Shown here: one piece after another, positions 1 to 64,000 of the stretch
How the letters are laid out: each line of letters begins with the position of its first letter
Numbering within the stretch: position 1 is the first letter of the stretch
The notes under the pieces: generated by a model
What the model was told of the DNA's origin: nothing
Seen by the model: only the letters and a program-made list of their open reading frames with translations
The model's database searches: none
Position numbers and translations under genes: made by a program
IMG/VR virus record: IMGVR_UViG_3300025769_000006
DNA: 64,000 nucleotides
Origin: a virus
Strand: one strand, 5' to 3'

Positions 1-2
1 AA

Positions 3-221
3 ACAGATACTCCTTGCACTTATGCTATTCAATTTACAATTATAGGTAATCAACTGTGTATGTCTGTCTATATGCGTTCTAATGACATCTGGTACGGTTT
101 CTGTAATGATCAGTATCAATTCTCATCATTGCAAAAAATGATTGCAGAGAGGCTGAATTTACAAATAGGTTGGTATTATCACCACGCGCATAATATGCAC
201 CTATATAACGACAAACTATAA
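3..221 (+). CDS. dCMP (deoxypyrimidine) hydroxymethylase-like protein, ThyA superfamily; C-terminal 72 aa only, 5' end outside window
   Basis: Frame 3 is open from the window edge to TAA 219-221. The translation ..DTPCTYAIQFTIIGNQLCMSVYMRSNDIWYGFCNDQYQF..HNMHLYNDKL has the ThyA-family catalytic Cys. It also has an MRSND-x3-GF-x-ND block that I recall from T4 gp42 (MRSNDVVFGFRNDYAWQ). Comparison was by eye only. Confidence 0.7.
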   Translation, partial: TDTPCTYAIQFTIIGNQLCMSVYMRSNDIWYGFCNDQYQFSSLQKMIAERLNLQIGWYYHHAHNMHLYNDKL

Positions 222-225
222 ATTT

Positions 226-999
226 ATGTATTATATTTATCATATTCCGGGTAAAAAGATAGGCGTTACACGTAATCTTAACACTAGAGTTACCCTTATA
301 CAAGGCTATAAGGAGGGTGAGTATGAAGTTCTTGAACGGTCAGAAGATATAGATTATATATCAGACCGTGAAATAGAACTTCAAAAGTCTTATGGCTATA
401 AAACTGATCTTCACAAATACAATAAACTAAAACCTTTATTAAATAAAATGAAAATAAATTCTACAGAACAAACATCAACTTTTCCTTGTCCATTAAATAA
501 ATTAAAAGGTAGATTAATGGATAATATTGGTTTAAAATGGAAAACAACACACGGAGACTTTAATATAACAAAACAAACTATTAACTGGATAGTAGCAAAT
601 GCTAAAGCATCTATGTTTGATAATGAAAGATGTTTTATTTATAATAAAGCTTTTTATGAATGTTTTTTAAATCCAGATCATAATCCCTCAGGTGATCCTG
701 AAATATCAAGATTTAATTTAATAAGAGAATGGGCTGACAGTAGAGGCATAACTAGCAAAGGTAACTCACATACTCAGTACGTTAAACTAATGGAAGAAGC
801 TGGCGAACTAGCAGAAGCAATATTAAAAAAAGATAGAAAAGAAATATACGACGCAATAGGCGATATGATAGTTGTATTAACAAATCTAGCTACATTAGAA
901 GATATGAAAATTGAAGACTGTATAGATTATGCTTACAATGAGATATCTAAAAGAAAAGGTAAAATGATTAATGGAACATTTGTAAAAAATACATTATAA
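226..999 (+). CDS. GIY-YIG nuclease domain fused to a MazG-like NTP pyrophosphohydrolase domain
   Basis: The N-terminus YIYHIPGKKIGVTRNLNTR..REIELQ fits the GIY / YIG / R / E pattern. The C-terminus KLMEEAGELAEAILKKDRKEIYDAIGDMIVVLTNLA fits the MazG EExxE..D helix pair. Confidence 0.7.
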   Translation: MYYIYHIPGKKIGVTRNLNTRVTLIQGYKEGEYEVLERSEDIDYISDREIELQKSYGYKTDLHKYNKLKPLLNKMKINSTEQTSTFPCPLNKLKGRLMDNIGLKWKTTHGDFNITKQTINWIVANAKASMFDNERCFIYNKAFYECFLNPDHNPSGDPEISRFNLIREWADSRGITSKGNSHTQYVKLMEEAGELAEAILKKDRKEIYDAIGDMIVVLTNLATLEDMKIEDCIDYAYNEISKRKGKMINGTFVKNTL

Positions 1000-1313
1000 T
1001 GAAGATAAACACTAAAGATGAAATAGTATTATCAGTACTAAAAAAAATGGATCAACGTAGTATTATTGGTCAACAAAAATACGGAGCTACAATGATGCAA
1101 GAAATCGAAGGTCAAGAAAAAGATCTTAATCGTTTCTTGGTTGATGTGCAAGAAGAGTTAATGGATGCTTTATTGTATATTGAAGCTGCGAAACGTTGTT
1201 TACAAGATGAGATTGAAGAGTGTATGATTAATAGAATAAACGTTGTAGGTCAAAATGGTAACGATGGTTTACACTATCATGATATAGAAATAAATGAAGC
1301 GGAGACCTTATAA
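999..1313 (+). CDS. hypothetical protein, possible all-alpha NTP-PPase (MazG-like) fold
   Basis: TAATG stop/start overlap with the upstream gene. KYGATMMQE..(30 aa)..DVQEELMDALLYIEAAK is reminiscent of small phage MazG-like proteins; the match is weak. Confidence 0.35.
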   Translation: MKINTKDEIVLSVLKKMDQRSIIGQQKYGATMMQEIEGQEKDLNRFLVDVQEELMDALLYIEAAKRCLQDEIEECMINRINVVGQNGNDGLHYHDIEINEAETL

Positions 1314-1752
1314 ACGAAAGAAAAAACGCGGACCTGTACAGTCAAAAAAAGTGTCGTATGATGGTATTAATTTTGCTTCAGGCCTTGAGCGTTACATGTA
1401 CATGGCTTTAAAGAAAAATAAAATTAAAGCTAAATACGAAGGAGAGACTTTTGTTTTATTAGCAGGTTTTCATTTTGAAAACGAGGTTTATGAAAGATGT
1501 AGTAATGGTAAGGGTGATTATAAAAACAGAGGTTGTAAACGTATATTACCTATTAAATACACTCCTGATTTCATTGGTGATGATTTTATAATAGAAACAA
1601 AAGGTAGAGCTAATGAGTCCTTTCCAATGCGTTGGAAATTATTTAAAAGACTTGTTATGAATCAGTTTCCTAATTACACATTATATAAACCACAAAATCA
1701 AAAAGAATGCGACGAAACAATAAGCATAATCCTTTCGAAGCGAAAAGGATAG
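1294..1752 (+). CDS. PD-(D/E)XK-type nuclease-like protein (DUF1064-like)
   Basis: YTPDFIGDDFIIETKG supplies a D...ExK restriction-endonuclease-like motif. The N-terminus is basic. Confidence 0.5.
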   Translation: MKRRPYKRKKKRGPVQSKKVSYDGINFASGLERYMYMALKKNKIKAKYEGETFVLLAGFHFENEVYERCSNGKGDYKNRGCKRILPIKYTPDFIGDDFIIETKGRANESFPMRWKLFKRLVMNQFPNYTLYKPQNQKECDETISIILSKRKG

Positions 1753-1880: not shown

Positions 1881-2022
1881 TAATAATAATATTTCTTGGT
1901 CTTTAGAAGTTGGCTTTTACCCAGGCATTCTATTTGGATTAAGAACTTATGATGAAGAAGAAAGAGTTTCATGGGTTTTATATATACCTTTTATTGATTT
2001 ATGTTTAACAATTTATAAGTAA
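1873..2022 (+). CDS. small hypothetical protein (49 aa), not in ORF track
   Basis: ATG 1873 to TAA 2020-2022, with a TAATG overlap onto the nrdB start: MDNNNNISWSLEVGFYPGILFGLRTYDEEERVSWVLYIPFIDLCLTIYK. Confidence 0.3.
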   Translation: MDNNNNISWSLEVGFYPGILFGLRTYDEEERVSWVLYIPFIDLCLTIYK

Positions 2023-2990
2023 TGGGTTTATTTGATGAGCGCGTAGCGTATAAACCATTTGAATACCCTGAATATTATACAGAGGGTTGGTTAAAGCAAG
2101 CACAAGCATTTTGGTTACATACTGAAATCTCAATGCAAAGTGATATTAAAGATTGGAAAGAGAAATTAAATGAAAAAGAGAAAAACTTGGTTGGAAACAT
2201 ACTACTCGGCTTCGCACAAACTGAATGTGCGGTGTCGGATTATTGGACGCAGAAGGTTGTCGGGTGGTTTCCTAAACACGAAATACAACAGATGGCAATG
2301 ATGTTTGGATCTCAAGAAACAGTTCACGCTGTTGCTTATAGTTATTTAAACGAAACACTAGGATTAGAAGATTATGAAGCATTTTTACACGAACCAGCAA
2401 CGGCTGCTAGATTTGATAATTTGGTTGCTTACGACGGTAATAATCCTGTTGGTATTGCGAAAAGCTTGGCTGTATTTTCAGCCTTCGCTGAAGGAGTTAG
2501 TTTGTATAGTGCTTTTGCAGTGCTTTATAGTTTTCAGCTTCGAAATTTACTTAAAGGTATCGGGCAACAAATGAAGTGGTCTGTAAGAGATGAGTCTTTA
2601 CACAGTAAAATGGGCTGTAAACTTTTTCGAGATATGTGCAATGAAAACGATCAATTACTGCATTTATGTCGAGAAGATATAATAAAAGCTGCAGAAAACA
2701 TGGTATCACTTGAAACTAAATACATTAGAAAAATGTTTGAAGCTGGAGATATAGATGGTATAAAAGCAAATGATTTAATACATTTTATAAAAAAGAGAGC
2801 AAATGAAAAACTGGTTGAACTTGGTTACATTGATCTTGGCTCGTACTTCGCGTATGACAAAGATGCAGCGTCTAATCTTGATTGGTTCTATCATCTTACC
2901 GGCGGGGTCACTCATACTGATTTTTTCGCAATACGGCCGACGGATTATTCGAAGGCTAACGAAGGCGAAGACTTTGACGACATTTGGTAA
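2022..2990 (+). CDS. nrdB: ribonucleotide reductase class Ia, beta (R2) subunit
   Basis: Di-iron and radical-site motifs are present: FWLHTEI, SQETVHAVAYSY, AFAEGVSLYSAF, VRDESLHS. The acidic C-terminal R1-binding tail is EGEDFDDIW. Confidence 0.95.
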   Translation: MGLFDERVAYKPFEYPEYYTEGWLKQAQAFWLHTEISMQSDIKDWKEKLNEKEKNLVGNILLGFAQTECAVSDYWTQKVVGWFPKHEIQQMAMMFGSQETVHAVAYSYLNETLGLEDYEAFLHEPATAARFDNLVAYDGNNPVGIAKSLAVFSAFAEGVSLYSAFAVLYSFQLRNLLKGIGQQMKWSVRDESLHSKMGCKLFRDMCNENDQLLHLCREDIIKAAENMVSLETKYIRKMFEAGDIDGIKANDLIHFIKKRANEKLVELGYIDLGSYFAYDKDAASNLDWFYHLTGGVTHTDFFAIRPTDYSKANEGEDFDDIW

Positions 2991-3434: not shown

Positions 3435-5156
3435 ATGTGGAATAATGAATGGAAAAAAGGAGAAGACTATCCAAGGTGGGGAGACACGGATGTTTACAAA
3501 AAAACTATCTCAGGAGGATATTTACTTGCTGGAGAATCTCCTAAGCAAGCGTATGAAAGAGTATCAAAAACGGTCGCAAGAAGGTTATACAAACCGGAAA
3601 TGGCAGAAAGATTCTTTGAATATATTTGGAATGGTTGGCTTTGCCTTGCTAGTCCTGTTCTTAGTAACACTGGGACTGATAGAGGTCTTCCTATAAGTTG
3701 TTTTGGTATAGACGTCGCGGACAGCATACAAGATATAGGGCATAAAAATTTAGAGATGATGCTACTCGCTAAGCACGGCGGTGGAGTTGGCATTGGCATT
3801 AACATGATTAGACCCGCCGGCGCTAAAATAACAGGGAATGGAACATCAGATGGAGTCGTACCCTTCTGCAAAATATATGACTCAACAATTCTTGCAACTA
3901 ATCAAGGATCTGTCAGACGAGGAGCTGCTTCAGTTAACATTAACATTGAGCACGACGATTTTGAAGAATGGCTTGAAATTAGAGAGCCAAAGGGAGACGT
4001 TAACAGACAGTCGCTTAATCTACATCAATGCGCAGTTGTTGGTGACAAGTTTATGCGTAAGCTTGAACAAGGAGATACGGACGCTAGAAATAGATGGAGT
4101 AAATTACTTAGAAAAAGAAAAGCAACTGGAGAACCGTATATATTATTTAAAGGAAACACTAACAAAAGAAATCCAAAAGCATATAAAGAAAACGGTTTAA
4201 AAGTACATATGACAAATATATGTTCTGAGATCACGTTGCACACTGATGAAAACCATAGTTTTGTTTGCTGTTTATCATCATTAAATTTAGCTAAATATGA
4301 AGAATGGAAAGGTACAAATCTTATATACGACGCCACTTGGTTTCTTGATGGCGTTATGGAGGAATTTATTCAAAGAGCAAAAGGACTTAGAGGTTTTGAA
4401 AACGCGGTTCGTAGTGCTACAAAAGGAAGAGCACTCGGGTTGGGTGTACTCGGATGGCACACGTATCTCCAAGAAAACGGAGTACCTTTTGAAGGTCTAC
4501 TTGCTCAGTTTGAAACTAGGAAAATATTTTCGCAAATTAAAATTGAAAGTGAAAGAGCTTCCAGGGATCTTGCTGAAATTTATGGCGAGCCTTTGTGGTG
4601 TGTTGGTACTGGTGTGCGCAATACTCACCTTCGCGCTATTGCTCCCACTGTATCTAATAGTAAGCTTTCGGGCAATGTATCTCCGGGTATTGAGCCGTGG
4701 GCGGCAAACGTATTTACAGAGCAATCTGCTAAAGGAACGTTTATAAGAAAAAATCCTACATTATTAAAACTATTAAGAAAACTTAAAATAAATAACAATG
4801 AAACTTGGGACAAAATTTTGGCAGATGGTGGTAGTGTTCAAGGTTTATCTGAGCTTGACGGGATTGTGGTTGGGCCTCATGATATACCGGCTAAAGAAGT
4901 ATTTAAAACTTTCAAGGAAATAAATCAGTTAGAGTTGGTTAATCAAGCTGGTATACGTCAGCAATATATAGATCAATCTGTTAGTTTAAATCTAGCTTTT
5001 CCTAGTGTTGCTAAACCTAAATGGATTAATCAAGTTCATATGCAGGCTTGGAAAAATGGTATTAAAACCTTATATTACACAAGGACAGAGTCAGTGCTAA
5101 GAGGAGATATAGCACAACAAGCAATGAGCGAAGATTGTTTGGCTTGTGATGGCTAA
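3435..5156 (+). CDS. nrdA: ribonucleotide reductase class Ia, alpha (R1) subunit, no ATP-cone
   Basis: Active-site blocks NLHQCAVV, TNICSEITL and FVCCLSSLNL are present. The C-terminal redox pair is CLACDG. At 573 aa it starts directly in the all-alpha domain. Confidence 0.95.
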   Translation: MWNNEWKKGEDYPRWGDTDVYKKTISGGYLLAGESPKQAYERVSKTVARRLYKPEMAERFFEYIWNGWLCLASPVLSNTGTDRGLPISCFGIDVADSIQDIGHKNLEMMLLAKHGGGVGIGINMIRPAGAKITGNGTSDGVVPFCKIYDSTILATNQGSVRRGAASVNINIEHDDFEEWLEIREPKGDVNRQSLNLHQCAVVGDKFMRKLEQGDTDARNRWSKLLRKRKATGEPYILFKGNTNKRNPKAYKENGLKVHMTNICSEITLHTDENHSFVCCLSSLNLAKYEEWKGTNLIYDATWFLDGVMEEFIQRAKGLRGFENAVRSATKGRALGLGVLGWHTYLQENGVPFEGLLAQFETRKIFSQIKIESERASRDLAEIYGEPLWCVGTGVRNTHLRAIAPTVSNSKLSGNVSPGIEPWAANVFTEQSAKGTFIRKNPTLLKLLRKLKINNNETWDKILADGGSVQGLSELDGIVVGPHDIPAKEVFKTFKEINQLELVNQAGIRQQYIDQSVSLNLAFPSVAKPKWINQVHMQAWKNGIKTLYYTRTESVLRGDIAQQAMSEDCLACDG

Positions 5157-6061: not shown

Positions 6062-9000
6062 TTATAAATTTATATCTATATCTAAGTTTAAATCTATATT
6101 TAAGTCATTTAATTCTCCACCAAAATCTAAACCAAAAGGATTGTTTATATTGTTGTTATTTTGGTATTGATCTTCGTCTAAATCTAAATTCCATTTACTA
6201 TAACCAAAGAAGAAAGCAATTCTTTGCCATGTTTCATATTGACTATCTAACACGGCTGCTGCATTTTCTGCTTTTATCATTAGCCTATCAAGCGGTATAT
6301 TTAAAGTTGCAGATGTTAAAGTTGTAAGAGCCTCTAAAGCGTAAGGATTTTTTATTGGATCCCAACCCCAATAATCAAAGTATTCTGACTTATAACTATA
6401 AGACTGATAAGCTTTAGCTAATTTTCTAGCCTTAATACCTATAGGTGCAGAAACATTTAAAGCTTCTATAACTAGTTGATATTCTTTTCCTCTACCACGT
6501 CTTGGTCCTTGACTAAGCTCGTAAGCTTTTAGCGAAACATTTTTGACAGCAGCAATATAAGCTCCATACAAACCAGCTCCTCTTATTAAAGTATCTAGCA
6601 TACTATTGGCAGCTCTAGTTTTACTTTGCGTATAATCTACATATCTTTCATCATCATCGTCCCACATTCTAAATAAAGCGTTTTGCAAGAAATTAAATAT
6701 AAAATTTTGAATAGCCGCATAATAAACTATTTTAGAAACATTACCAGTAAAACTACCTCTATTTTTTGCAATATTTAAAGCTGCAGTTTTTATTATTCTA
6801 GCGTATTGTAGTGGTGTGTTTTGAAATGCCAAAAGCAATCTACCTTTAACAGATGCTTGGTTTTGAGAGATTTTAGATGGATCTGCTGACTGTTGACTTA
6901 TTTCAGCTGTTTCGTAAAACTCTAACATAGCTCTTTTTTCGGCTTCTGCTCTATCAACTCCTTTTTTAACTAAATCATTTATTCTATTTCTATAAAAAGT
7001 AGTTCCACCTAATGTTATTGCTAAGCTATCAGCGGCTCTTGTTGGTATAAAACCTTTTTTAAGAGCCCAAAATATTAAACCTTTTGTTTTTTGTGCCCAT
7101 GTTTTATTATTAGGACTATTCAAAACATCTACAAACTCCGCTTCTTGTAAATCACTTAATAAACCAGATCTTCTATCTTTTAAATAAGGAGAGTTCCAAA
7201 GTGTTTTAAAATCTTTAACCATTTGTGGAACATTTAATATAGCTTTACCAGCAGCTAAAGGATTATTAAATGTCATATTAATAAAGTTTGTAGCTGATAT
7301 TGTTTGCAGTAAAGCAGATCTCATGTTGAAAAACATAGTAACACCTACAGAACCATTAAGCCAGTCAACCCAACCTCTAGTTGCTTTATCTAAACCTTTA
7401 GGTTTGTTTGTACCGGTTTGCATTCTACCTAAAACATCTGTTAGAGCATCAACATAAGGAGTACCATAAGCGGCTTGTAATTTAGCCATTGTTTCTTTGT
7501 TAAATATCAAATCAACATTTTGCTTCCATCTTTGTAAATATTTAGCTCTATTTAGTTTAGTTAATATAGATTGAACGTCTGAAAGTATGTTACCATCAAC
7601 CCATTGTTGAGGTGGTTCTATATATCCATTAGGTTGTTTAGCTAATAATGATATTTGTTGAGCTAATTTTCTTAACTTTGGATTTGTTCGAACTACTTCA
7701 GATAAATTAAATATATCTTTAGATTCTAAATCTGGTATTTGATATCCAGCTTTTTTCCATAAATAAACTCTTATAGCTTGATCGTTACTAAAACCAGAAT
7801 AACTAGAATCTTCTCTTAGTAGTTTTTTTGTTTGCTTATCAAATAAGTTTTTCCAATCTCTATGTGCTGAGTTTCTAGCATTTATTAAATCTAAGTTGCC
7901 TTCTGAATAAGGTTTTATTATATTTTCTGTTACCCAATCTACTTGTTGCTCTCCTTTTTTACCTCTACCTGAAGCAACCATAAGCATTAAACCTAAAAAA
8001 TCAGAATCTGCAGGTGGTAAATATATTTTTTTAGAAATATTCTTAGCCATCTGCTCTGCTCTTGCTTTAGAAAAAGTTTCTTCTACAGCAATGCCAGTAT
8101 TTTCTTCAATTATTTGATTAAACGCTGTATTTAAATTATTACTATAATTTTTATTATTTTCTAAAGAAAATTTAGTAACATCTAAAACGCCTTTTGTTAT
8201 TTTACCTTTTTTATTGTTAGCGTTTTTAAATTCAAATTCATTATATCCTTGAGATATTTTATCTATTAAATAATAAGAAACTGCTTTATCGTTCATCTTA
8301 CCTAAGTCAGGAACTTTAAATTTGTTTCTTTTTTGGCTAAACTTAGAAACTTGTCTAGATGCTTGATCCATTATTCTAGCTGTAAAAAACTGCTGATTAG
8401 GATCATTAGAATATGTAAGATAAGAATTTAGCTTAGCATTGTTTCTAGTTCCATTGCTCATGCTAAATTTAACTTTATCAGATTTTCCTTTAGCAAAGTT
8501 GTTTATTACCTTGTTTCTTGTATTTATATTTTGTAAATCGTTGTATAAGTTTACATTTCTTTTAGATATTTCATTTAAGAAAGCATCGTTTCTTAAAGAG
8601 TTTCTAGCTTCTTGAAGAACTAAAACATCTCCAAATAATTCCATTAAAGCTGTTCTTCTATCAAAATAAGCTGTAGCCCAAAGTTTATTGCCTGTTCTAC
8701 TTAATTCAACTGGTAGTAATTTTTTTAATAAAACGTTAGGATTTTTACTATAAGTTCTTATTATTCTAGTTGCTTCATCTACACCAAAATAACTCTGTAA
8801 AAAAGTAACAACATTTATATCTTTTGTTTTCTGCGGCCTACCTTGATCATCTGTGGTTTTTAATCTTGGTGGAACTTTCTTTATAGCATAGGTGGACTCA
8901 CCGGTGACTGGATCAATTGGATTGTTTATGACTTCCCATATAGTTTTCCAGTTGTTAAACATAAATGAATCTAGATCTGTGCTATTTTTAAACGTCATTC

Positions 9001-12000
9001 TTCTTGAGAGAGTTTGAGATAATATAGCTAATTTTTCTTTAAAATTTCTAAAATCTAAAGTTTCTATGTTTGGTGCTGATAATATTTCTCTTCTAATTTC
9101 AGCGGCAATAATTGCAGCTGGGTTTATTTCTTGAGAATATGCTTTATATGTTTTTATAAAACCTCCAGAAGCAACACTATATGTTTTAAAAGATTTTAAT
9201 TCTTTTAACTCTTTTGCTTCCTCGTCTGTTAATCTTTCTTTAGCTTCAAGCTCTAAACCTCTTTTTAAATCTCTTTTTTCTTGCTCTAATTGTTTTTTAA
9301 TAGCTGGATCTGTAACTGACTTTAGCTTTTTATTTACAGCTATAGAAGGATCATCTGCATTTAAAGCAAAATCACCACCAACTGGCACGCCTTCTATTAA
9401 TATAGGATCACCGTCGCTGTTAGAAAATCCAAACGTAGGATCTTTTAACAAAGTTATTAATTCATCTTGATTTTTTTCAAACTCTTCTTTTTGTTCTTGA
9501 ACATTAGTTTCATTTGATGTTTCAATAGAAGTTGCTCTTTCATCTATTTCGTCTGTAAACTTTTGACTAGTAACATTACCTGTTTTAAGGGCTTGTTTCA
9601 TTTTGTTTCTTAATTGACTGTTTATCCAGCCATTAAGATTGTTGTTTTCTAATATAGTTTCACCCTCAGAATTTTTATATCCTTTTTCGTCTAGCTTGTT
9701 TAAAGTGCTATTTATTTCAGAAGAAGAAAATCCTTTTTGTTTAAGTTTTTCTCTTTTCTTTTCTCTAAGCTCTAAAAATTCTTTATTAAAATTTCTAATA
9801 TGTGGTATTAATGCTATAGAAGTTTCAGCAATCATATCTTCAACACTATAATCAGGTAAATTTCCATATAAAACAGATGCCTTATCTAGTATAGGTTTTT
9901 CATACTCATTTAATATATCGTATAAAACGTTATCAACACCTGATGATTTACCCCAAATATTTTTATTATAAAAAGAATTTACTTTTAATTTAAATTCTTC
10001 TGAACTTGTTCTTTTCTTTGGTTTTAAAGAAAACTTTTCATCAAAATTAAAATTATCTTCTATGTCTTGTATTTCATCAAGAGTTGGTTCTCTATCTAAA
10101 ACAGGCTCTTGTGGTGCTTCTTTTTTATTTTTATCAACAAACTCTTGAGACTCTCTTTCTAAAGCTTTTGTGTCTATTTGAGCTCCTTTTTCAGCTACTT
10201 CAATTAAAGCCTTGTTTTTATCTGCTGTAAGTATTCTTGAATTTATACTAGTATTGTAATCTTTTATAAAATTATAAACATCTCTAGCAGAATTAAATTT
10301 TATATTTTTAAAACCTAAAAACTGTAGAACCTGTCTTATTGTATCTGCTATTTTTGTAAAAGTATCTGCTTCATAAGTTACTGCACCAACTGTTATAGCG
10401 TCAGAATAAAGTGTTAAAACCTCTTCCCATTGATTTCCAACAGCTTCTGATACTTTTCTATCATACTCTTGTTTAGTTATAACTCCAGATTTTAAATCAG
10501 CATCAAAACCTTTTATCATGTCGTTGTAAAATGCAATATAACTAGTAAAGTCTTTTAAGAACTCATCTGGTAAAGCTTTTTCAAGAGACTCATTAGAATC
10601 TAGCTTATCTTGTATTTTCATTACTTCAGCTAAAAGAGATTTACCTAATAACACTTGAGCTTCAGGGTTGTTTCTTATAGTCTCATACATTACACCATGT
10701 AAAAACTCATGCTCTTTTACAGTAACTTTACCGTCTTTAGAGGCTTTTTCGTTGTTTATAACTATATATTGCTGATCACCTCTTTGTATTGTAGTTCCAT
10801 ATTTTTGAGCTGTTGAAGTTGCTTTTGCTTTTGTATAGCCTAGTTCTTCAACTAAAAAGTTAACAAGATCTTCAGTTGAATCAAACTCGTTCCATGATAT
10901 ATTTTTAAACTTACCTTTTTTTATAGCTTTTTGTATAATTCCACTTTTTCTTTTTGTTATATCATTATAGTAAGCTGTTTTTATTTTTTCATCTAAAGCA
11001 GCTATTCTAGCGTCTGTTTCTGAGTGAAAAGATGGATCTTCTGTTTTTCTTTGTTGTCTGAGTCTACCAACTTCATTAACGTCTCCTAGTATTTGACTAG
11101 CAGCTTCAGCTGATAAATCTTGAGGCATTCTGTTTATATTGTTATTAAAAGCATTTATTTCTTCTAATACTTGATCAGCCTCTTGTTGAGTGTATATACC
11201 TTGATTTACTTGTTTTGCTAATAAACTTTTTACATCTTCTTTTTTATAAGCTAAGTAGCTTAAGTTGTTAAATCTATCTACAGCTGACATACCTAACATC
11301 TGCCTAGCCGTTTGCTTTGCTAGATTAAGTGTTACACCAGCGCCTGGCATAATTGCGCCTGCAAAGAAAGAAAGAATCGTAGTATCAAGAAAGTCTTGCA
11401 TACTCATTGTGTCCTTAAGTATTTTCTTTCCAGCTATTTCATTTACATTTTTGTTTACAGCAAATACTTCACCTATTTGTTGTACATTTTCTTGAAAAAC
11501 TTCTTTTAAACCTTCCCCACCTAAATTAACAAGTGTTCCAAGTTTTCCACTTCTAAAATAATCTATAAAAGAGTTTTTTCCTTTTTTAGTATATTCTCTT
11601 AGCGCGTTTCCTACAAAGTTTTTTGTAGTTAATTTACCAAATATAGCGTCAGTAGCTTTTGTCTGTGGAGAAATAGGAGCTGTTAAAGCGTATAATATAC
11701 CTGTTTGTATAGAAGCAATAGTAGCAAGTTCCGAGGCTTCTGCATCGTTTATTCCCATTTGTCTAGCTTGAGCTAGTGTTTGTTCATAACCTCTAGAAAA
11801 TCCCATAGTGCCTTGTGCTATAATAGCATCTGCCATAGATCTTTTTATTGGAATAGATTTTAAAAAGCTTCTAGTTTTACCTAGTATTCCCATACCATTA
11901 GTAAAACCACCGACAGCTCTAATACCGTTGCCCATGCCTCTAGTCATAGCTATTTGCACAAATAAATCTCCCAACACGTTAGCTCCAGAATCAAAAGCAC

Positions 12001-13423
12001 CTAAAACGCTAAATGCTCTATCTTTAGTACCTCTTTCTCTAGCCTCTTTTCTTATTTGATCTGCTTTTTCTTGTGTTAAAAAGTTTGTAGCATCTAAAGA
12101 TCTTGTTTTGTCTAATATTCTACCATCTTTTGTTACTAAGTAAATAGTGTTAGTTTCTGCATCTACTATAGAATTACCTATACCATTTACAAAACGACCA
12201 GGACCGGTATAATGTTTCCACTTACCTTCCATGCCTAATTTTTCTAAAGCAATTTCTTCTCTTATAGATTCGGAAACACCTTCAAAATAATCACCTGGTA
12301 ATATACCATAAAAAGACGCACTAAGCTCTTCTATTCTATCACTAAATCCGTTCCAACCATTTCCTCCAACATTTAAAAGAAATTGACCTGCGCTAATATT
12401 TCCATCAGATTTCAAGAGTTTTTGATACTCCATATTATCTCTTTCGTCTGCTTCTTGCATTTTAGCAGATATAATTGGAAACTCTTTTCTAACGTAAGAT
12501 TCGTATTGGTTTAATTTTATATTTTCAGGAGATATTTGAAATTTTTTATTAATAGAATTTGGATCTATACCAGTTTCAGATTGAAACATTAATTTTTGTT
12601 GCTTAATGTCTCTTTGTATTTGTTCGTTTAAATATAAATTAAAATATTTTAGTTTTCTTCTTTCGTAAGCAAGTTCAGGATCATAAGCATTTCCATAAGA
12701 TTTTTTATCCATGTCAAGCTCTAAAAATCTTTTTAAATCTTCGTCATATCCTTTGTTTCTCATAAATCCAGCAAAATCAACTTGATTCATGTTGTCTAGA
12801 TAAACATCTCCATATACGTCATTAACAAAGTTATCTTGAGGATCAAATTCTTCGTATATATACGGTTGATTTAATTTTTGAATATCTATGTAAGTTTGTA
12901 TTTCATCTTTACCTTTACTTTGAAAAGTAGCAATTCTACTTTTTGCTTTATCTCTTTCATATTTAGGTATAGGATTTATAGTAGACAAACCTAGTGGATC
13001 ATCTTTATAACCAGCTTTTATAAGGTCTTCTTCACTTATAAAATTATTATCTACAGCTAATTGTATGTTTTCATCTTCAAATAAACCAAATTGGTTTTGC
13101 TTGAGTAGACTTTCTTTGTCAAATCTATTAATAGATTCTCCTACTTGAGATTTTAGATTTTCATCTACGTTTGGATTAAAATACTCAAAATTATTTATAT
13201 CTAAGCTACCTGGAGATACCGATAAAGTATTTTCCGAAATTAAATCCCCATCTTGACTCGGTGCGAACATGTTGTTTGAAGGCATCGCATTTGCACCCGC
13301 TGCAACACCCTCCACTTTTTTTAATTTTGCACCTGGGTTTTCAGACAAGAAAATTATTTTTTGTTGTTCTGGATAATTAGTCAAATCAACTTCTTCTCCA
13401 TTTGGTAAAATATATATTTCCAT
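6062..13423 (-). CDS. giant (2453 aa) virion-associated multidomain protein with zincin HExxH motif; putative ejection/internal protein
   Basis: A single uninterrupted ORF. HEFLH is encoded at 10697-10711. Gly-rich hydrophobic stretches occur (GNGIRAVGGFTNGMGILG, ILSFFAGAIMPGAGV). Its position matches T7 gp16 after 230-aa and 571-aa proteins. Confidence 0.55.
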   Translation of the reverse strand: MEIYILPNGEEVDLTNYPEQQKIIFLSENPGAKLKKVEGVAAGANAMPSNNMFAPSQDGDLISENTLSVSPGSLDINNFEYFNPNVDENLKSQVGESINRFDKESLLKQNQFGLFEDENIQLAVDNNFISEEDLIKAGYKDDPLGLSTINPIPKYERDKAKSRIATFQSKGKDEIQTYIDIQKLNQPYIYEEFDPQDNFVNDVYGDVYLDNMNQVDFAGFMRNKGYDEDLKRFLELDMDKKSYGNAYDPELAYERRKLKYFNLYLNEQIQRDIKQQKLMFQSETGIDPNSINKKFQISPENIKLNQYESYVRKEFPIISAKMQEADERDNMEYQKLLKSDGNISAGQFLLNVGGNGWNGFSDRIEELSASFYGILPGDYFEGVSESIREEIALEKLGMEGKWKHYTGPGRFVNGIGNSIVDAETNTIYLVTKDGRILDKTRSLDATNFLTQEKADQIRKEARERGTKDRAFSVLGAFDSGANVLGDLFVQIAMTRGMGNGIRAVGGFTNGMGILGKTRSFLKSIPIKRSMADAIIAQGTMGFSRGYEQTLAQARQMGINDAEASELATIASIQTGILYALTAPISPQTKATDAIFGKLTTKNFVGNALREYTKKGKNSFIDYFRSGKLGTLVNLGGEGLKEVFQENVQQIGEVFAVNKNVNEIAGKKILKDTMSMQDFLDTTILSFFAGAIMPGAGVTLNLAKQTARQMLGMSAVDRFNNLSYLAYKKEDVKSLLAKQVNQGIYTQQEADQVLEEINAFNNNINRMPQDLSAEAASQILGDVNEVGRLRQQRKTEDPSFHSETDARIAALDEKIKTAYYNDITKRKSGIIQKAIKKGKFKNISWNEFDSTEDLVNFLVEELGYTKAKATSTAQKYGTTIQRGDQQYIVINNEKASKDGKVTVKEHEFLHGVMYETIRNNPEAQVLLGKSLLAEVMKIQDKLDSNESLEKALPDEFLKDFTSYIAFYNDMIKGFDADLKSGVITKQEYDRKVSEAVGNQWEEVLTLYSDAITVGAVTYEADTFTKIADTIRQVLQFLGFKNIKFNSARDVYNFIKDYNTSINSRILTADKNKALIEVAEKGAQIDTKALERESQEFVDKNKKEAPQEPVLDREPTLDEIQDIEDNFNFDEKFSLKPKKRTSSEEFKLKVNSFYNKNIWGKSSGVDNVLYDILNEYEKPILDKASVLYGNLPDYSVEDMIAETSIALIPHIRNFNKEFLELREKKREKLKQKGFSSSEINSTLNKLDEKGYKNSEGETILENNNLNGWINSQLRNKMKQALKTGNVTSQKFTDEIDERATSIETSNETNVQEQKEEFEKNQDELITLLKDPTFGFSNSDGDPILIEGVPVGGDFALNADDPSIAVNKKLKSVTDPAIKKQLEQEKRDLKRGLELEAKERLTDEEAKELKELKSFKTYSVASGGFIKTYKAYSQEINPAAIIAAEIRREILSAPNIETLDFRNFKEKLAILSQTLSRRMTFKNSTDLDSFMFNNWKTIWEVINNPIDPVTGESTYAIKKVPPRLKTTDDQGRPQKTKDINVVTFLQSYFGVDEATRIIRTYSKNPNVLLKKLLPVELSRTGNKLWATAYFDRRTALMELFGDVLVLQEARNSLRNDAFLNEISKRNVNLYNDLQNINTRNKVINNFAKGKSDKVKFSMSNGTRNNAKLNSYLTYSNDPNQQFFTARIMDQASRQVSKFSQKRNKFKVPDLGKMNDKAVSYYLIDKISQGYNEFEFKNANNKKGKITKGVLDVTKFSLENNKNYSNNLNTAFNQIIEENTGIAVEETFSKARAEQMAKNISKKIYLPPADSDFLGLMLMVASGRGKKGEQQVDWVTENIIKPYSEGNLDLINARNSAHRDWKNLFDKQTKKLLREDSSYSGFSNDQAIRVYLWKKAGYQIPDLESKDIFNLSEVVRTNPKLRKLAQQISLLAKQPNGYIEPPQQWVDGNILSDVQSILTKLNRAKYLQRWKQNVDLIFNKETMAKLQAAYGTPYVDALTDVLGRMQTGTNKPKGLDKATRGWVDWLNGSVGVTMFFNMRSALLQTISATNFINMTFNNPLAAGKAILNVPQMVKDFKTLWNSPYLKDRRSGLLSDLQEAEFVDVLNSPNNKTWAQKTKGLIFWALKKGFIPTRAADSLAITLGGTTFYRNRINDLVKKGVDRAEAEKRAMLEFYETAEISQQSADPSKISQNQASVKGRLLLAFQNTPLQYARIIKTAALNIAKNRGSFTGNVSKIVYYAAIQNFIFNFLQNALFRMWDDDDERYVDYTQSKTRAANSMLDTLIRGAGLYGAYIAAVKNVSLKAYELSQGPRRGRGKEYQLVIEALNVSAPIGIKARKLAKAYQSYSYKSEYFDYWGWDPIKNPYALEALTTLTSATLNIPLDRLMIKAENAAAVLDSQYETWQRIAFFFGYSKWNLDLDEDQYQNNNNINNPFGLDFGGELNDLNIDLNLDIDINL

Positions 13424-17576: not shown

Positions 17577-20500
17577 TTAAGGACCAATAAATTGACCCGC
17601 AGAATCAGACATACCTATTGTTGGATATTTACTAACTTGACCATTAGAGCCAACATACATTGGAGGATCAAGAGTTACAGAGGTTAAAGACGAAGACGTT
17701 GGAGGTTGATTACCAGGATTTCCAAAATAATAAGGTGGCGAAGGCATGTTTGCGTTTGTTGTATTGTTCCATACTAAATTAAAATCACCAGTAGCACCAT
17801 TTGCATTTGCTCTAAAACCCATATTAACCATAGCGCAAGCTGAAAAGTCGTAAGAACCATAAGAACCACCACTAGATCTCATACCTGGTCTTAATCCTGC
17901 AGCCACTGCTAAATCAAAATTTGTTTGTGTCATTCCTCCTGAAGCAGCCGTGAAAGGTTGTAAGCCACCAACTATTATCCATTGATAAGGTCCAGCGGCA
18001 TCACCTGTTGAACCTGGACCATTTGGCGGTGGTGGATAATAGTTATTGCTAAAATTACTAACAGCCGCTGGAACAGAATTACCAGTGCTTATTCCAAAGC
18101 TATTACCTTGACTGTCGGTAAAATTAGTACTATTGTCACCGTATCTAGGATCTGAATTTGGATATAAAGGATATTGAAATGTTGATCGTTTTGTTGCGCC
18201 GTTTGTATTTCTTATTGAACAGTAAGCATATATGTACACAGGTTGATCAGTCCAGTTTTGCATTTGATAATAACCATCTTTTGTTGATGTTCCTTGAATT
18301 GTTGTTCCTGATAAAACAGGTTGGAATTCAGAATCTGAATTACTGTATTTAGCTATTATAACTTGACCAAAGTATGTTGTAACGCCAACGCTATATGTTA
18401 TTTTAGCAGCATAAGCACTGTCTACAGTTGTATTATAAGCTTGTAAACTATCTTTTAAAGACATGTTTATTTCGTAAGAATAGTTGGGTTCATTTAAAGG
18501 ACCTGGATTTTGACCGTTAGAACCTAATTGACCACTTAGATTAAAACCAATCCATTCGTCAGCTCCAGATCCACCAGCTTGACCTTCTTGAAAAGTAGGC
18601 CAATCTGCTGAAGACTGATAAGTAGATACCCAATCACTTACAGAAGGTGTCGTTGCAGTTGTTACCTCAACTGTATTACCAGTTGTAGCGTTTGTTTTTG
18701 TGATGTTAACAACTTGCCAACCAGACTGAAGACTACTAGATAAAAACTCTCTACCTGTAGGATCAGAGTCATTATATGGTGCATTAAACTGTCTAGCTGA
18801 ACCATTTCTTCCTCTAGGTGAATTTCCTGAGGTTACTATAGTTGTGCTCGTAGTAAGAACAGATCCAGTTCTATCTACTATAGGATTTTGAACAATAGGA
18901 ACAACATTTTCTAATTGGACTATGAAAGACTGATCTACTTGTGTTCCGTCGAGTTGAGCTAAAGTTAAAGTAAATTGAAACTTACCTCTAGTTGCTACAT
19001 CATAATTAGGCTCTTGAGAAGATCCAGCATAAAATCTATCGTTTGTTTTAACTATATAACTACCTGTTGAACCACCTGGCTCAATAACAAACCTGCTAGC
19101 TTGTGGAATAGTCGTGTCTAAATTGCCATTAGCATCGTGAGCAAAAACGGTGTAACTAACGAGTGTTGTATTTGCTAAGTTTACTCCATTTGCAACTGGA
19201 AATATATCACTAGTTATAGCTGTTCCAGAGGCCATTGATTCTATAAAAGAAACTGTAAAACTATTTAAACCAGTTATATTGTTACTAGTATTCTGTATAG
19301 ACAGATTCAAATCAGATATTTTATCAGACGTAGAAGACTCATAAAATATTTCTAATGGTGATATATATGGAGCTGTTTCGTAAATAGCTAACCCCATATT
19401 TGGTGGATAAGGATAATTACCTGTAAAGTTTATATCGTCAGGTTGAGTATAAGACTGCTCACCTAATCCAACGGCTTTTTGGGTTGATATTTTAGCTAAA
19501 ACAGGTTTTGTATCAAAACTATATATAGCGTATTTATTTATAAATCCTGGACCTGTATTATCGCTTAAACCAGGATATAAATCATTTATACCTCCGACTA
19601 AATTAACTTGATCAGCGGCGGATTCTGGATCAACTTGCTTATTAAATGTTTCATAAGTAACTGTTGTTGATTCAACACCTGGTATATTTGTAACTCTAGG
19701 CCACATAGAAACATCGCTTGTAAACTGATTTTGATTTGGTCCTACATCTTCTAAATTTCTAGGAATTTTATTAATGTTGTCAGTTATTAAAACAATATTA
19801 GCAACTTCGTTTTGCTCTAAAGTTTCTTCGTCTATTGGATAACCATTTACAATACCTGGAAGAAAAACATTATAATAGTCTTGTTGCTGTTGTTTTACAG
19901 CGGTTTTGTACACAAAAAATCCATTTGGATTAATATCATATGTAGCGTAAACATTTAAACCTGTCTTAGCAGGTAGTCCAGTTGTTGCGCTGCCTGGTGA
20001 ATTGTCAAAAACATAATCTAAACTAACTTCCTCTTTTGTAAAAAACTCTACAGCTCTAACGCCATTAGCGTCACTTATAGGTGTAACACTAGTTATTTCT
20101 GTATAATCTATGTATAAGCCATTTAATTTTTTACCAGGCGCATAATATTGAGAATAAGTAGTTGGCCAATCTGGAAATAAAGGTCTATTTGTACTTGAAG
20201 CAGCCCCAGTACTGTATTTATATCTCCTATCAGATGTGTATAATATTTCTACTTTTACAACTTGAGGCGCAGTTATAGCCGTGTTTAGTGTAACTCTTAA
20301 ATAATTAGAATTATCAGATATTGTATATTCAGTAGATTCTATTAACTTAAAACCATTGTTATAGTCAATATATACATTAAACGTGTTGGATGAGTCAGTA
20401 GCGTCTGCGTATGTAAAATAACTATCAAATGTAGTACCAGCGTTTGTGCTTGTGAATTTAAAATATTGAGTTGAAAGAGGTATAAAAGTTGGATATAAAG

Positions 20501-41544: not shown

Positions 41545-41801
41545 ACAACAACGACCACGTCTTGTGACTTTATAACGTGATATATATTTTTTTCAAACTC
41601 TATTTTATGACCAGCGTGTCTATCAAAAAATATTTCATCATTTTCTTTAACACCATCAACTTCATTTCCAACTGATATTACTAGTGCTCTTCTGTATCTT
41701 AAATCATTTTTTTGATTTTCAGAAAGAAGTAAACCACCTTTTGTTTCTGTAGTTCCTTCTTTTTTGACTAATATTATTAAGTTTCTACCTATTGCTTTCA
41801 T
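41541..41801 (-). CDS. groES: co-chaperonin GroES-like (Cpn10)
   Basis: At 86 aa: LIILVKKEGTTETKGGLLLSE (mobile-loop pattern) ..ALVISVGNEV..NDEIFF..IYHVIKSQDVVVVV. Confidence 0.75.
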   Translation of the reverse strand: MKAIGRNLIILVKKEGTTETKGGLLLSENQKNDLRYRRALVISVGNEVDGVKENDEIFFDRHAGHKIEFEKNIYHVIKSQDVVVVV

Positions 41802-43341
41802 TTATTCTAACGTTATTTATTACACAATTAGTAGAAAGTATAGTAGTTGCTACAGAAGCCGCATTTTTTAATGCACTTTTAGTAACTAATAGTGGATCTA
41901 TAATTCCACTTTTAATCATATTAACCATTTTTCCTGTAACCACGTCGTAACCTTGACCCTTTTTATAAGGATAATCTAAGTTATCAACACCTGCATTAGA
42001 AAGAATAGTTCTATAAGGTGCGGTTATAGCACTTAACAACAGTCGTTCGCCTAATGAATAAGCTTTAACTTTTTGAGAAGCGTTTAGAAGCGCAATACCA
42101 CCACCTGGAACAATACCTTCTTTAACAGCGGCTTTTGTAGCACAGATAGCGTCTTCCACTCTATCCATTTTTTCTTTAAGTTCTATTTCAGAATTAGCTC
42201 CAACTTTTACTACAGATATCCTAGATGAAAGCATTGCTAATCTTTTTTCTAAACTTATTACTTGATCAGGTATTTTACAAGTTATAAGCTTTTTTTCTAT
42301 ATCTTTGATTATCTCAGCACATTCATGGCTTTGCTCTTTAAACTGTAATATAGTATCTGTTTGGCTGGTTATAGACTTAAAACATGTACCTAGATGATCT
42401 ATTTCTATTAAATCCATATCATCACCTAAATCTTCGTTTATTAACGTCGCTCCTGTTAGCAAAGAAAGATCATCAAACATTTGTTTTCTATTTACACCTA
42501 ACACAGGTGCATCTATAACATTAACTTTTATATTTCCTTTTGTTTTATTCATTGCTAATGCTGATAAAACCTCAGGACTTAAATCTGCTATTATTAAAAG
42601 TGATTTATTGTTTTTTATAACATATTCTAAAACACTTTGTATCTGTCTTATGTTTTCAACATTATTTTCTACTAATAAAACAAGAGGGTTGTTTAACTCT
42701 GCAGTCTTTTTAATTTTATTAGTAACAAAATGAGGACTTGTTAGACCTTTAAAATATTGAGAACCTTCTATTGTTTCTATTTCTGTTTTACCAGAATCAG
42801 ATTGTTCCATTATAACTACACCTGTATTTTTTACATTTTCAAATGCTTTACCTATTAACTCTCCTAACTCTTTATCATTGTTTGTTGATATAGTAGCTAT
42901 TTGTTTTATCATTTCATCTTTAACAGGTAAAGATATTTTATTTAAATAATCAACAACTCTATTAACAGATTTATTTATATCTTCTTTTAGCTCTCTTACA
43001 CTAAGTTCTGATTTAACTTTATTTGCTTCATAAAGTATTGAGTGAGCTAAAACAGTAGCTGTGGTAGTGCCATCACCCGCTTCTTTAACAGTTTTTTTTG
43101 CGGCTTGTTTTAACAAGTTGCAACCTAAATTTTCTACCGGATCTATTAACACTACGCTTTCAGCAACTGTTACACCATCTTTTGTTATTGTTGGATTTCC
43201 ATATTGATCTTCTAGCAAAACACAGCTACCACCAGCGCCGAGCGTTGAACTAACCGCGTTTGCTAACTTGTCAATACCATTAAAAACTTTATTCCTAGCA
43301 TCGTCTCCAAAACTAAGATTTTTAACTATCTTGTCTGACAT
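41785..43341 (-). CDS. groEL: group I chaperonin GroEL-like
   Basis: ITKDGVTVA, EAGDGTTTATVLA (ATP site) and VPGGGIALL are present. At 518 aa it has no GGM tail. Confidence 0.9.
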   Translation of the reverse strand: MSDKIVKNLSFGDDARNKVFNGIDKLANAVSSTLGAGGSCVLLEDQYGNPTITKDGVTVAESVVLIDPVENLGCNLLKQAAKKTVKEAGDGTTTATVLAHSILYEANKVKSELSVRELKEDINKSVNRVVDYLNKISLPVKDEMIKQIATISTNNDKELGELIGKAFENVKNTGVVIMEQSDSGKTEIETIEGSQYFKGLTSPHFVTNKIKKTAELNNPLVLLVENNVENIRQIQSVLEYVIKNNKSLLIIADLSPEVLSALAMNKTKGNIKVNVIDAPVLGVNRKQMFDDLSLLTGATLINEDLGDDMDLIEIDHLGTCFKSITSQTDTILQFKEQSHECAEIIKDIEKKLITCKIPDQVISLEKRLAMLSSRISVVKVGANSEIELKEKMDRVEDAICATKAAVKEGIVPGGGIALLNASQKVKAYSLGERLLLSAITAPYRTILSNAGVDNLDYPYKKGQGYDVVTGKMVNMIKSGIIDPLLVTKSALKNAASVATTILSTNCVINNVRINESNR

Positions 43342-51039: not shown

Positions 51040-51279
51040 ATGTCAAAAGTAAATCAAATTACTACAAAAAGATTTGTAATCAGAAAATCCTTAATTGGTA
51101 CAAACACAGTGATTACATTCACTAACAAGAACAAAGAAGTATGTAAGTACAATCATGACTTAGTCTACAATCAACTAAAAGAAAAGTTCGACGCTATGCC
51201 ATGCTTCAACAAGTACAACAGTTATACAAACTCTAACAATCTACCAAAGTTTGTAAGAGACCTTGAGAAAATAGTATAA
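51040..51279 (+). CDS. early protein, paralog family A (79 aa)
   Basis: ORF track entry; highly similar to 51782..52021. Confidence 0.7.
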   Translation: MSKVNQITTKRFVIRKSLIGTNTVITFTNKNKEVCKYNHDLVYNQLKEKFDAMPCFNKYNSYTNSNNLPKFVRDLEKIV

Positions 51280-51575: not shown

Positions 51576-51711
51576 AACTAAACCCCCAAATCTACTTTAA
51601 CCTACTAATACATACTAAGCATAACAAGCCTGATTTTGAAATAGGATCGGAAGAGTAGACTCCGTCCTACACCATACTTATGTATTCTTTTTTTGCTGCA
51701 TGCCGCACTCG

Positions 51712-51745
51712 CACGGACTTGCGCGTTAAGTTGTCAGATAATATA
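51712..51745 (+). promoter_or_regulatory. class-E promoter
   Basis: CACGGACTTGCGCGTTAAGTTGTCAGATAATATA. Confidence 0.6.
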
Positions 51746-51781
51746 ACTGTAAGCAACGAAGCTTATATTAAACTTTATACT

Positions 51782-63770: not shown

Positions 63771-64000
63771 ATGGCTTGGGGCAAAAAAGTAAACATGGGA
63801 ATTTATACTCCAGATAAATCAGAATTTGAAGCTTATCATTGGTGTATAAATAATAACATCTACATATCACCGTTTGCTAAAAATGAAGCGGCTTGGTATA
63901 TAGATATTGTAATTAATGGAAAAACAAATAGATCGCCGAGTGTGTATAGCAAACACACTATATGGAATACGATCTATGAATATTATAAATATTATTATGA
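63771..64000 (+). CDS. hypothetical protein, 3' end outside window
   Basis: The ATG at 63771 immediately follows the primase-helicase stop, and the frame is open to the window edge. Confidence 0.45.
   Translation, partial: MAWGKKVNMGIYTPDKSEFEAYHWCINNNIYISPFAKNEAAWYIDIVINGKTNRSPSVYSKHTIWNTIYEYYKYYY

Follow-up and report, generated by a model that had tools for sequence, protein, structure and literature searches.

Does the phage behind IMG/VR record IMGVR_UViG_3300025769_000006 carry a modified cytosine in its DNA, and which of its genes would be responsible? The stretch of 64,000 nucleotides (nt) that we have analyzed, called the window below, begins inside a gene for a protein of the thymidylate synthase (ThyA) superfamily. 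This gene is followed by two open reading frames (ORFs): 226-999, which codes for a protein of 257 amino acids (aa), and 999-1313, whose product we call p104. An earlier note, made from the letters alone, had proposed a toolkit similar to that of phage T4, with a cytosine hydroxymethylase, one clear and one possible MazG-type pyrophosphatase domain and a GIY-YIG nuclease. As judged from its alignments, the ThyA-like protein carries the complete published signature of 5-hydroxymethyl-dCMP (deoxycytidine monophosphate) synthases, and its gene is constantly linked to MazG. These two features together indicate that the phage DNA probably contains 5-hydroxymethylcytosine (hmC) or a derivative.

Only the C-terminal third of the 213 aa ThyA-like protein is encoded at the start of the window. 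Frame 3 of positions 3-221 reads TDTPCTYAIQF...YMRSNDIWYGFCNDQYQF...HLYNDKL before the stop codon (in full, TDTPCTYAIQFTIIGNQLCMSVYMRSNDIWYGFCNDQYQFSSLQKMIAERLNLQIGWYYHHAHNMHLYNDKL). This is the reading quoted in the earlier note, which had correctly recognized a ThyA-type fragment: it matches the Pfam family Thymidylat_synt (PF00303) with 1.9e-12. The note had also described the ORF as truncated. It is so at the window edge, but the gene itself is whole. An exact-protein look-up of the downstream ORF led to six public contigs, and in three of them, which are independent (L001, L002 and L005), the last 40 and the first 40 bases of the window are 417 nt apart. The source genome is therefore circular or circularly permuted, with about 64.4 kb (about 64,417 bp), and was cut within the ThyA-like gene. 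The gene runs through 63997-64000, 417 nt outside the window and 1-221; an alternative upstream ATG at 63976 would give a 220 aa form. Over the shared part, the ThyA-like protein of L005 is identical to the window sequence.

We have aligned the full-length protein with Escherichia coli ThyA (EcTS), T4 gp42 and eight phage homologues, and have taken the determinants of substrate and reaction from four papers. The core residues of the superfamily are kept, namely the catalytic Cys (EcTS C146, T4 C148) and the equivalents of E58, Y94, R166, D169, H207 and Y209: C146, R166, S167, D169, H207 and Y209 are invariant in the alignment, and the stretches AEAEWQWY and NSNYG are conserved. The best relatives of solved structure are the CMP hydroxymethylase MilA (2e-18), ThyA (about 1e-16) and the T4 dCMP hydroxymethylase (1e-13). 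In both HMMER and MAFFT alignments, the Asp of GFCND stands opposite N177 of EcTS (LPFN), D179 of T4 gp42 (GFRND) and the Asp of MilA. The earlier note had placed an Asp here by eye, as in the FRND of T4, and had asked for a full-length alignment to see whether Asn occupies this base-reading position. The residue is Asp, as it is in about 118 of 120 closely related sequences, and four more features of the published signature are present as well; this check thus speaks for a cytosine hydroxymethylase. At the EcTS N177 position, Asp corresponds to a cytosine substrate (PMC13326640, PMC8670742), while true ThyA and the ViI-type dUMP hydroxymethylase have Asn in our alignment. Homologues with Asp177 are enriched on contigs with modified C in MetaGPA and are common in metaviromes (PMC8670742).

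Other residues point to the reaction and to the sugar. Asp143, at the position of EcTS L143 and T4 D145, is found three residues before the catalytic Cys (K-T-D-T-P-C), and the equivalent of T4 S94-x-Y96 is present as Ser99 and Tyr101 in N-S-N-Y-G. In T4, D145 and S94-x-Y96 activate the water used for hydroxymethylation, and the D145N mutant is inactive (PMC6400193). Asp169 (in MRSND) is retained in 120 of 122 homologues; the published mark of 5-hydroxy-dCMP synthases of the RB69 gp48 type is Asn at this position (EcTS numbering). Ser167 (M-R-S-N-D) and Arg126' (K-T-R-H), both present, correspond to a deoxyribose substrate, in contrast to the Ala and Lys of the CMP-specific MilA (PMC5175136). 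The protein ends four residues after H-x-Y, without the C-terminal folate-sealing tail. The same is true of the T4 enzyme, which does not have the tail that seals the ThyA active site (PMC6400193). About 120 close homologues conserve these signature residues. From the residues we infer both substrate and product: the ThyA-like protein is, with good probability, a dCMP hydroxymethylase.

The resemblance to T4 gp42 (PDB 1B5E, 6A9B) covers the thymidylate synthase fold, the catalytic Cys, the pattern MRSND...GF-x-ND, the Asp three residues before the Cys, Ser-x-Tyr, the Ser and Arg deoxyribose determinants and the missing tail. Unlike gp42, the window protein has Cys in place of the folate-tail-binding Arg177, and its inter-subunit phosphate site reads R-H, not R-R. 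MilA of Streptomyces (PDB 5JNH, 5B6D) shares both Asp residues, that of the N177 and that of the L143 position. On the other hand, its Ala176 and Lys133' favor ribose where the window protein has Ser and Arg, and the phage gene lies in a context of ribonucleotide reductase and MazG. The closest homologue in a cultured phage is gp32 of Bacteroides phage BF486P2, with 44% full-length identity, GFCND, a short C-terminus and a Bacteroidota host; its annotation as 'deoxycytidylate 5-hydroxymethyltransferase' is computational only. Unlike the window, BF486P2 has a second paralogue and a nearby dUTPase instead of MazG: its two Asp-type paralogues (L007:5168-5929 and 8001-8681) flank the dUTPase. Another annotated case is Agathobaculum phage AB434P2 (L014:2557-3219), whose 'deoxyuridylate hydroxymethyltransferase' has Asp, not Asn, at the ThyA N177 position, so that the base in its annotation is probably wrong.

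The linkage to MazG has been studied in 80 IMG/VR loci, whose ThyA-like proteins are 64-97% identical to that of the window; their ORFs were called and matched to the window proteins. Strict synteny is found in 70 of the 80 loci: primase-helicase, p84, ThyA-like, the protein with the N-terminal domain and MazG, p104, DUF1064, p57, p49, NrdB and NrdA. Seven loci (L069, L076-L078, L087, L089 and L093) form a second lineage with different neighbors, which are a 5'-3' exonuclease, a DnaA-C-like protein and a nearby terminase. In five of these seven (L069, L076, L077, L078 and L087), a stand-alone MazG gene (97-104 aa, 61% identical) comes directly after a ThyA-like gene of 218 aa. As for the other two, L089 ends ahead of the downstream gene, and the next ORF of L093 (107 aa) does not match the window MazG domain. 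ThyA-like followed by MazG is found in 75 of the 80 loci in all, counted where the downstream sequence is present, with overlapping or nearly overlapping stop and start codons in both lineages. L087 also has a p104 homologue (69% identical) directly 5' of the ThyA-like gene. Since lineage 2 has other neighbors and the linkage is kept, the association of ThyA-like with MazG (and p104) survives a change of genomic background. Its persistence is the best evidence we have for a functional link.

Other phages have arrangements which agree with such a link. In MW202657, a nucleoside triphosphate pyrophosphohydrolase (NTP-PPase) adjoins a 'pyrimidine hmase'. A dUTPase gene (dut) adjoins Asp-type homologues in Bacteroides and Enterococcus phages, and the homologue of Enterococcus phage VPE25 adjoins a beta-glucosyltransferase. 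In several loci of lineage 2, a conserved cassette of three genes, absent from the window, is located just upstream of ThyA-like and MazG (L069:5309-8001, L076:383-3094, L077:809-3510 and L089:915-3626). It codes for two unknown proteins of about 300 aa and a fold-type-II pyridoxal phosphate (PLP) enzyme (PALP 2.5e-12; 'threonine dehydratase' in PHROG), and is a candidate pathway for hydroxymethylcytosine (hyper)modification.

The last 95 aa or so of ORF 226-999 form a genuine MazG domain, as the earlier note had seen. Residues 187-244 match Pfam PF03819 with 32.8 bits, above the cut-off of 22, and the PHROG match is 7e-33. The helical bundle is confidently modeled by AlphaFold2, with predicted local distance difference test scores (pLDDT) of 77-94 over residues 160-240. 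Its Foldseek matches are MazG, the mouse and human dCTPase (DCTPP1) and cyanophage MazZ, with probability 1.0 for both DCTPP1 and MazZ. The window domain shares this fold with T4 gp56, DCTPP1 and S-2L MazZ, and its gene adjoins that of the modifying enzyme; it differs in that by sequence it belongs to a group of generic small phage MazG proteins and is fused to a T5orf172-type domain and a middle region. In the known systems, gp56 is paired with gp42 and MazZ with PurZ, as pyrophosphatases which feed or clear pools for base replacement. By this analogy, a dCTPase role for the window MazG is plausible. That it acts mainly on dCTP is a tentative assignment, which we would not yet favor over other specificities. 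At TAATG (997-1001), the stop codon of ORF 226-999 and the start codon of p104 overlap, and 20 nt (1294-1313) are shared by p104 and the DUF1064 gene. Such overlaps suggest translational coupling across the module.

The N-terminal part of the same ORF is more difficult to classify. The GIY-YIG domain proposed for it is not evident in the window sequence, whose only match is a weak one to MUG113 (E=0.08); scans of this region with Pfam, PHROG and NCBIfam gave nothing significant. We have also taken 16 more divergent orthologues from IMG/VR loci and scanned them one by one. T5orf172 is matched by 11 of the 16 (best 4.4e-4), MUG113 by 10 (best 3.1e-4) and GIY-YIG by one; T5orf172 and MUG113 both belong to the GIY-YIG clan, and the matches are sub-threshold. 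Ten residues of the domain are invariant (Y2, Y5, H6, K11, G13, R21, E49, G57, Y58 and D61), and they fit the 'GIY ... KIG ... R ... E' pattern of the T5orf172/MUG113 branch. These comparisons indicate that a domain of the GIY-YIG superfamily is probably present, as part of the MazG protein and not as a nuclease of its own. Structural searches did not add to this. A profile made from the orthologue alignment of the N-terminal region gave no match among PDB sequences, and the AlphaFold2 model of the N-terminal half is unreliable (pLDDT 30-45), so Foldseek only reported the MazG part. Matches of residues 75-117 to 'Pizza' beta-propellers in the PDB were discarded as an artefact of repeat summation, with every stretch at E>100.

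The earlier note had suggested that this domain is an analogue of T4 DenA (EndoII) rather than a homing enzyme. The second half of this suggestion holds, since it does not behave as a mobile homing gene. Median identity in the N-terminal region is 68%, compared with 70% for ThyA-like and 69% for MazG; this rate, similar to that of its neighbors, and the invariant R21, E49 and D61 argue for a functional, vertically inherited domain and not for a decaying mobile element. The first half fares badly. The domain is probably of the T5orf172 type, is fused to MazG instead of being a separate gene, and is absent from lineage 2. A tblastn search of residues 1-165 against 50,697 phage records, T4 included, found no similarity to EndoII, only three matches at about E=0.8, all of them to a homing-endonuclease-like ORF of a Klebsiella phage. 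A DenA-like discriminator of unmodified DNA is therefore improbable here. T5orf172 domains are found in putative homing endonucleases, and one member of the branch, ICP1 Odn, is a phage nuclease whose activity has been shown by experiment (PMC8263062). The window domain shares with domains such as Odn (Gp88) the KIG variant of the second motif and the conserved Arg and Glu. It differs in its very short beta-hairpin spacing, in the fusion to MazG and in having no recognizable DNA-binding module. The most economical history would be that an old T5orf172-type endonuclease gene was inserted between ThyA-like and MazG, and was later fused and domesticated.

The second MazG domain, which had been proposed as a possibility in ORF 999-1313, is not confirmed. 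The core of p104, R-x3-G-x3-Y-G-x-T ... Q-E-E-L-x-D-A-x2-Y, resembles a single metal-binding helix of MazG, but only locally. Neither p104 nor 58 diverse homologues match any family in Pfam or NCBIfam, apart from a lone MazG match which is a mis-called fusion with the upstream gene, and hhalign against the MazG profile gives a probability of 0.5%. The AlphaFold2 model of p104 is a hairpin of two helices (pLDDT 86), without any match among PDB folds; in BFVD it only matches uncharacterized phage proteins. A DUF6378-like neighbor of 88 aa in L069 shows a weak hhalign similarity to p104 (probability 9.8%). In two homologues (P0470 and P0285), the C-terminus of MazG and p104 are joined in a single polypeptide. 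These could be real fusions, or artefacts of frameshifts or of gene calling in overlapping genes.

A pathway may be proposed from these parts, with roles assigned by the alignment to gp42. Like gp42, the ThyA-like enzyme would convert dCMP and methylene-tetrahydrofolate into 5-hydroxymethyl-dCMP (hm-dCMP). Cys146 would attack C6, and Asp177 would read and protonate the N3/N4 face of cytosine. Asp143, with Ser99-x-Tyr101, would position and activate the water which hydrates the exocyclic methylene, replacing the hydride transfer of thymidylate synthase; without a C-terminal tail, the active site would be open to solvent. The phage ribonucleotide reductase would supply deoxynucleotides. The translationally coupled MazG would convert deoxynucleoside triphosphates into monophosphates (dNMP) and pyrophosphate, with dCTP as the economical guess. 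Hydrolysis of dCTP would have two effects, a supply of substrate to the hydroxymethylase and a depletion of the canonical nucleotide which competes. Phosphorylation of hm-dCMP would be left to host kinases or to an unrecognized phage protein, and incorporation to the host replicase. The outcome would be a partial or full replacement of C by hmC in phage DNA, possibly with further decoration, while p104 and the T5orf172-type domain may have accessory roles. We consider it rather probable that hydroxymethylase and MazG form a module of this kind, leading to hmC-type phage DNA.

Several observations weigh against this proposal. The second phosphate-binding Arg (EcTS R127) is His in the ThyA-like clade, the protein falls short of T4 gp42 by about 30 aa and the fold of this short form is only predicted, and overall identity to gp42 is only about 25-33%. 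Among cultured phages, the MazG domain is closest (48-53% identity) to small MazG proteins of a generic kind, which are found in Paenibacillus, Staphylococcus K-like, Streptococcus and Vibrio phages with ordinary DNA or no known cytosine modification. Furthermore, the related Cellulophaga phage phi10:1 has MazG and DNA methylases and no ThyA homologue. Together, these relatives and phi10:1 make a preference for dCTP a guess. The T4 comparison also suffers. The cytosine-specific hydroxymethylase of the proposed T4-like toolkit is predicted here too, but the rest of T4's equipment is not detected: in Pfam scans, no window ORF shows a gp1-type dNMP kinase, a DNA polymerase such as gp43, or a glycosyltransferase corresponding to the glucosyltransferases of T4, although divergent versions of all three are possible. 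A Walker-A scan of the window gave a true motif in the helicase alone. The only phage replication genes encoded are those for primase-helicase, ERF, exonuclease and SSB-like protein. Avoidance of palindromes and restriction sites, an indirect sign of modification, was uninformative, with mild and unspecific deviations.

These objections give rise to two alternatives. In the first, the hydroxymethylase is the sole modification gene and there is no toolkit: MazG is a generic enzyme of house-cleaning or pool tuning, as in many phages, and the T5orf172-type domain fused to it goes back to a homing endonuclease which has been domesticated. The MazG relatives just described, the phi10:1 case, the complete absence of the N-terminal domain from lineage 2, the lack of similarity to T4 EndoII and the putative homing endonucleases with T5orf172 domains (PMC8263062) all fit this explanation, which we hold as a serious possibility, below the proposed module. 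Against it, ThyA-like and MazG remain adjacent in two lineages whose neighbors differ, and the N-terminal region, with its invariant R21, E49 and D61, evolves as slowly as both of them. In the second alternative, hm-dCMP is made (or dCMP is bound) and little of it reaches DNA, as expected if the phage, without a dedicated kinase or polymerase, only manipulates the nucleotide pool or modifies its DNA partially and at a low level. No dNMP kinase, DNA polymerase or transferase has been detected, robust incorporation in vivo required the cognate kinase, and ThyA homologues expressed alone gave only trace incorporation (PMC13326640). We consider this unlikely: thousands of conserved homologues in phages of about 60-70 kb argue for strong selection, homologues with Asp177 lie on contigs with modified cytosine in MetaGPA (PMC8670742), the PLP cassette of lineage 2 is suggestive of further modification on DNA, and a kinase could hide among the many unannotated ORFs.

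Other activities of the ThyA-like enzyme itself must also be considered. Pfam, JGI and PHROG name it 'thymidylate synthase', and MilA is its best PDB match. Nevertheless, it is highly improbable that the protein is an ordinary thymidylate synthase, a dUMP hydroxymethylase, a 5-hydroxy-dCMP synthase or a MilA-like CMP (ribo) hydroxymethylase. Its scores with the NCBIfam ThyA equivalogs are all at most 75 bits, under cut-offs of 108-427 by a factor of 4-10, residues 177 and 169 are Asp and not Asn, and Ser167 and Arg126' take the place of Ala and Lys in MilA. We have rejected a canonical thymidylate synthase on account of these scores, of Asp177 and Asp143, and of the missing tail. DNA with 5-methyl-dC has been classically described in Xanthomonas phage XP12. 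A dCMP methyltransferase leading to such DNA would agree with Asp at position 177 taken alone, as ThyA with N177D produces 5mdCMP (PMC8670742). It is still very unlikely in our case: the L143 position is Asp instead of a bulky hydrophobic residue, Ser-x-Tyr is present, the equivalent of W83 is not Trp, and the site lacks a C-terminal tail which would close it.

A more extensive version of the hydroxymethylase and MazG proposal may be formulated, which we regard as distinctly unlikely. ThyA-like, MazG and p104 would form a minimal, self-sufficient module for cytosine replacement which uses host enzymes. In it, p104 would be a new essential component, for example one which joins MazG as a partner subunit, sets its specificity or inhibits a host enzyme which consumes dCTP or dCMP. 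In the main lineage, the T5orf172-MazG protein would physically link the cutting of unmodified host DNA with the hydrolysis of dCTP. If this were true, a large and very abundant group of marine Bacteroidota phages would have hmC-type DNA, with a pathway organized unlike that of T4.

The features discussed are collected in Table 1, together with neighboring genes. The genome is that of a tailed phage, with a G+C content of 32.6%. An early and replication block on the plus strand codes for two sigma factors, ERF, a DUF3799 exonuclease, an SSB-like protein and the primase-helicase, followed in order by ThyA-like, ORF 226-999, ORF 999-1313, the DUF1064 nuclease, NrdB and NrdA. A structural block on the minus strand includes a P22-like portal, a crAss-type muzzle domain and a GroEL-like chaperonin.

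Table 1. Location of the ThyA-like gene, the domains of ORF 226-999, p104 and neighboring genes in the window
Feature	Position	Strand	Remarks
ThyA-like start codon (ATG + 1 nt), 213 aa form	63997..64000	+	Sequence; full-length L005 and L002 translations
ThyA-like C-terminal 72 codons + stop, predicted dCMP hydroxymethylase	1..221	+	Frame from base 3; catalytic Cys (PCT), MRSND, GFCND, H-x-Y
N-terminal T5orf172/MUG113-type (GIY-YIG superfamily) domain of the 257 aa protein, probable	226..456	+	YIYHI...KIGVT.NL..R...E49...GYK.D61
Middle region, aa 78-165	457..720	+	Conserved; without family match; always accompanies the N-terminal domain
MazG-type all-alpha NTP pyrophosphohydrolase domain of the 257 aa protein	721..999	+	EEAGELAE ... 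EIYDAIGD metal-binding motifs
p104, uncharacterized conserved helical-hairpin protein	999..1313	+	R20, G24, Y28-G29, E52-E53, D56, Y60 (nearly) invariant
DUF1064 / PD-(D/E)XK resolvase-like nuclease	1294..1752	+	Same operon; context only
NrdB, ribonucleotide reductase small subunit (deoxynucleotide supply)	2022..2990	+	Pfam 6.5e-56
NrdA, ribonucleotide reductase large subunit	3435..5156	+	Pfam 1e-89

The nearest cultured relatives of the primase-helicase are found in phages of Cellulophaga (42%), Tenacibaculum, Riemerella and Flavobacterium. These relatives, and the ThyA-like homologue in a Bacteroides phage (44%), make a Bacteroidota host likely, of the Flavobacteria type. A search of GTDB genomes for the host only found bins of metagenome-assembled genomes with a mixed taxonomy (Flavobacteriaceae, Bacteroidetes, Saprospiraceae, also 'Aliivibrio' and others), which look like mis-binned viral contigs. 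No match was found when the first 6 kb were compared with phage records by megablast. Metagenomes, on the other hand, contain more than 8,000 near-full-length homologues of the ThyA-like protein, and likewise of ORF 226-999. We have confirmed 575 loci in IMG/VR, which includes dozens of genomes of about 60-70 kb.

Pre-replicative cytosine hydroxymethylation by thymidylate synthase homologues is already known, and so is the frequency of Asp177 homologues in metaviromes. What is new is a clade with a short form of the enzyme, in a very abundant group of marine phages which is itself new, with p104 and the T5orf172-MazG fusion as conserved companions. In the literature on hmC in flavobacterial or marine phages, or on MazG with dCMP hydroxymethylase, we have found nothing specific. 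If the prediction is true, the DNA of a very abundant lineage of marine phages contains 5-hydroxymethylcytosine or one of its derivatives. This would bear on the evasion of restriction and CRISPR in Bacteroidota hosts, on the recovery of phages by some library-preparation and enzymatic methods, and on estimates of the frequency of pre-replicative cytosine modification in the ocean. The 213 aa enzyme would also be the smallest natural scaffold of a dCMP hydroxymethylase. Both p104 and the T5orf172-MazG fusion are concrete and cheap targets for biochemistry.

Some other features of the window should be mentioned. The GroEL-like chaperonin (41785-43341, minus strand; Pfam Cpn60_TCP1 8e-56, with a GDGTT motif) is encoded within the structural and late block, where a crAss-type muzzle C-terminal domain, a collagen repeat and a Fib_succ_major domain are also found, not tied to individual ORFs. 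A 162 aa protein at 58066-58554 (plus strand) belongs to PHROG 624 (3e-50), annotated as 'DNA binding protein', and weakly matches Pyr_excise, the Pfam family of pyrimidine-dimer DNA glycosylases (E=0.0036, below the cut-off). A possible DNA glycosylase may deserve attention here, where the phage DNA is predicted to be modified. Of the two sigma-70 or extracytoplasmic function (ECF)-type factors, at 57015-57566 and 59602-60354 (both plus strand), one is clear and one is weak. As there are two phage sigma factors and no phage RNA or DNA polymerase was detected, the phage seems to redirect host polymerases. Two giant ORFs on the minus strand, 6062-13423 (2453 aa) and 17577-22622 (1681 aa), are almost without family matches. 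Two small ORFs on the plus strand, of 79 aa (51040-51279) and 113 aa (51680-52021), are paralogous. To judge from their sequences they are a local gene duplication: their C-terminal regions, of about 75 aa, are nearly identical, TTKRFVIRKSLIG.N.VITFTNKNKE.C.YNHDLVY.QLKE.F.AMPCF.KY.SYTNSNNLPKFVRDL.KIV.

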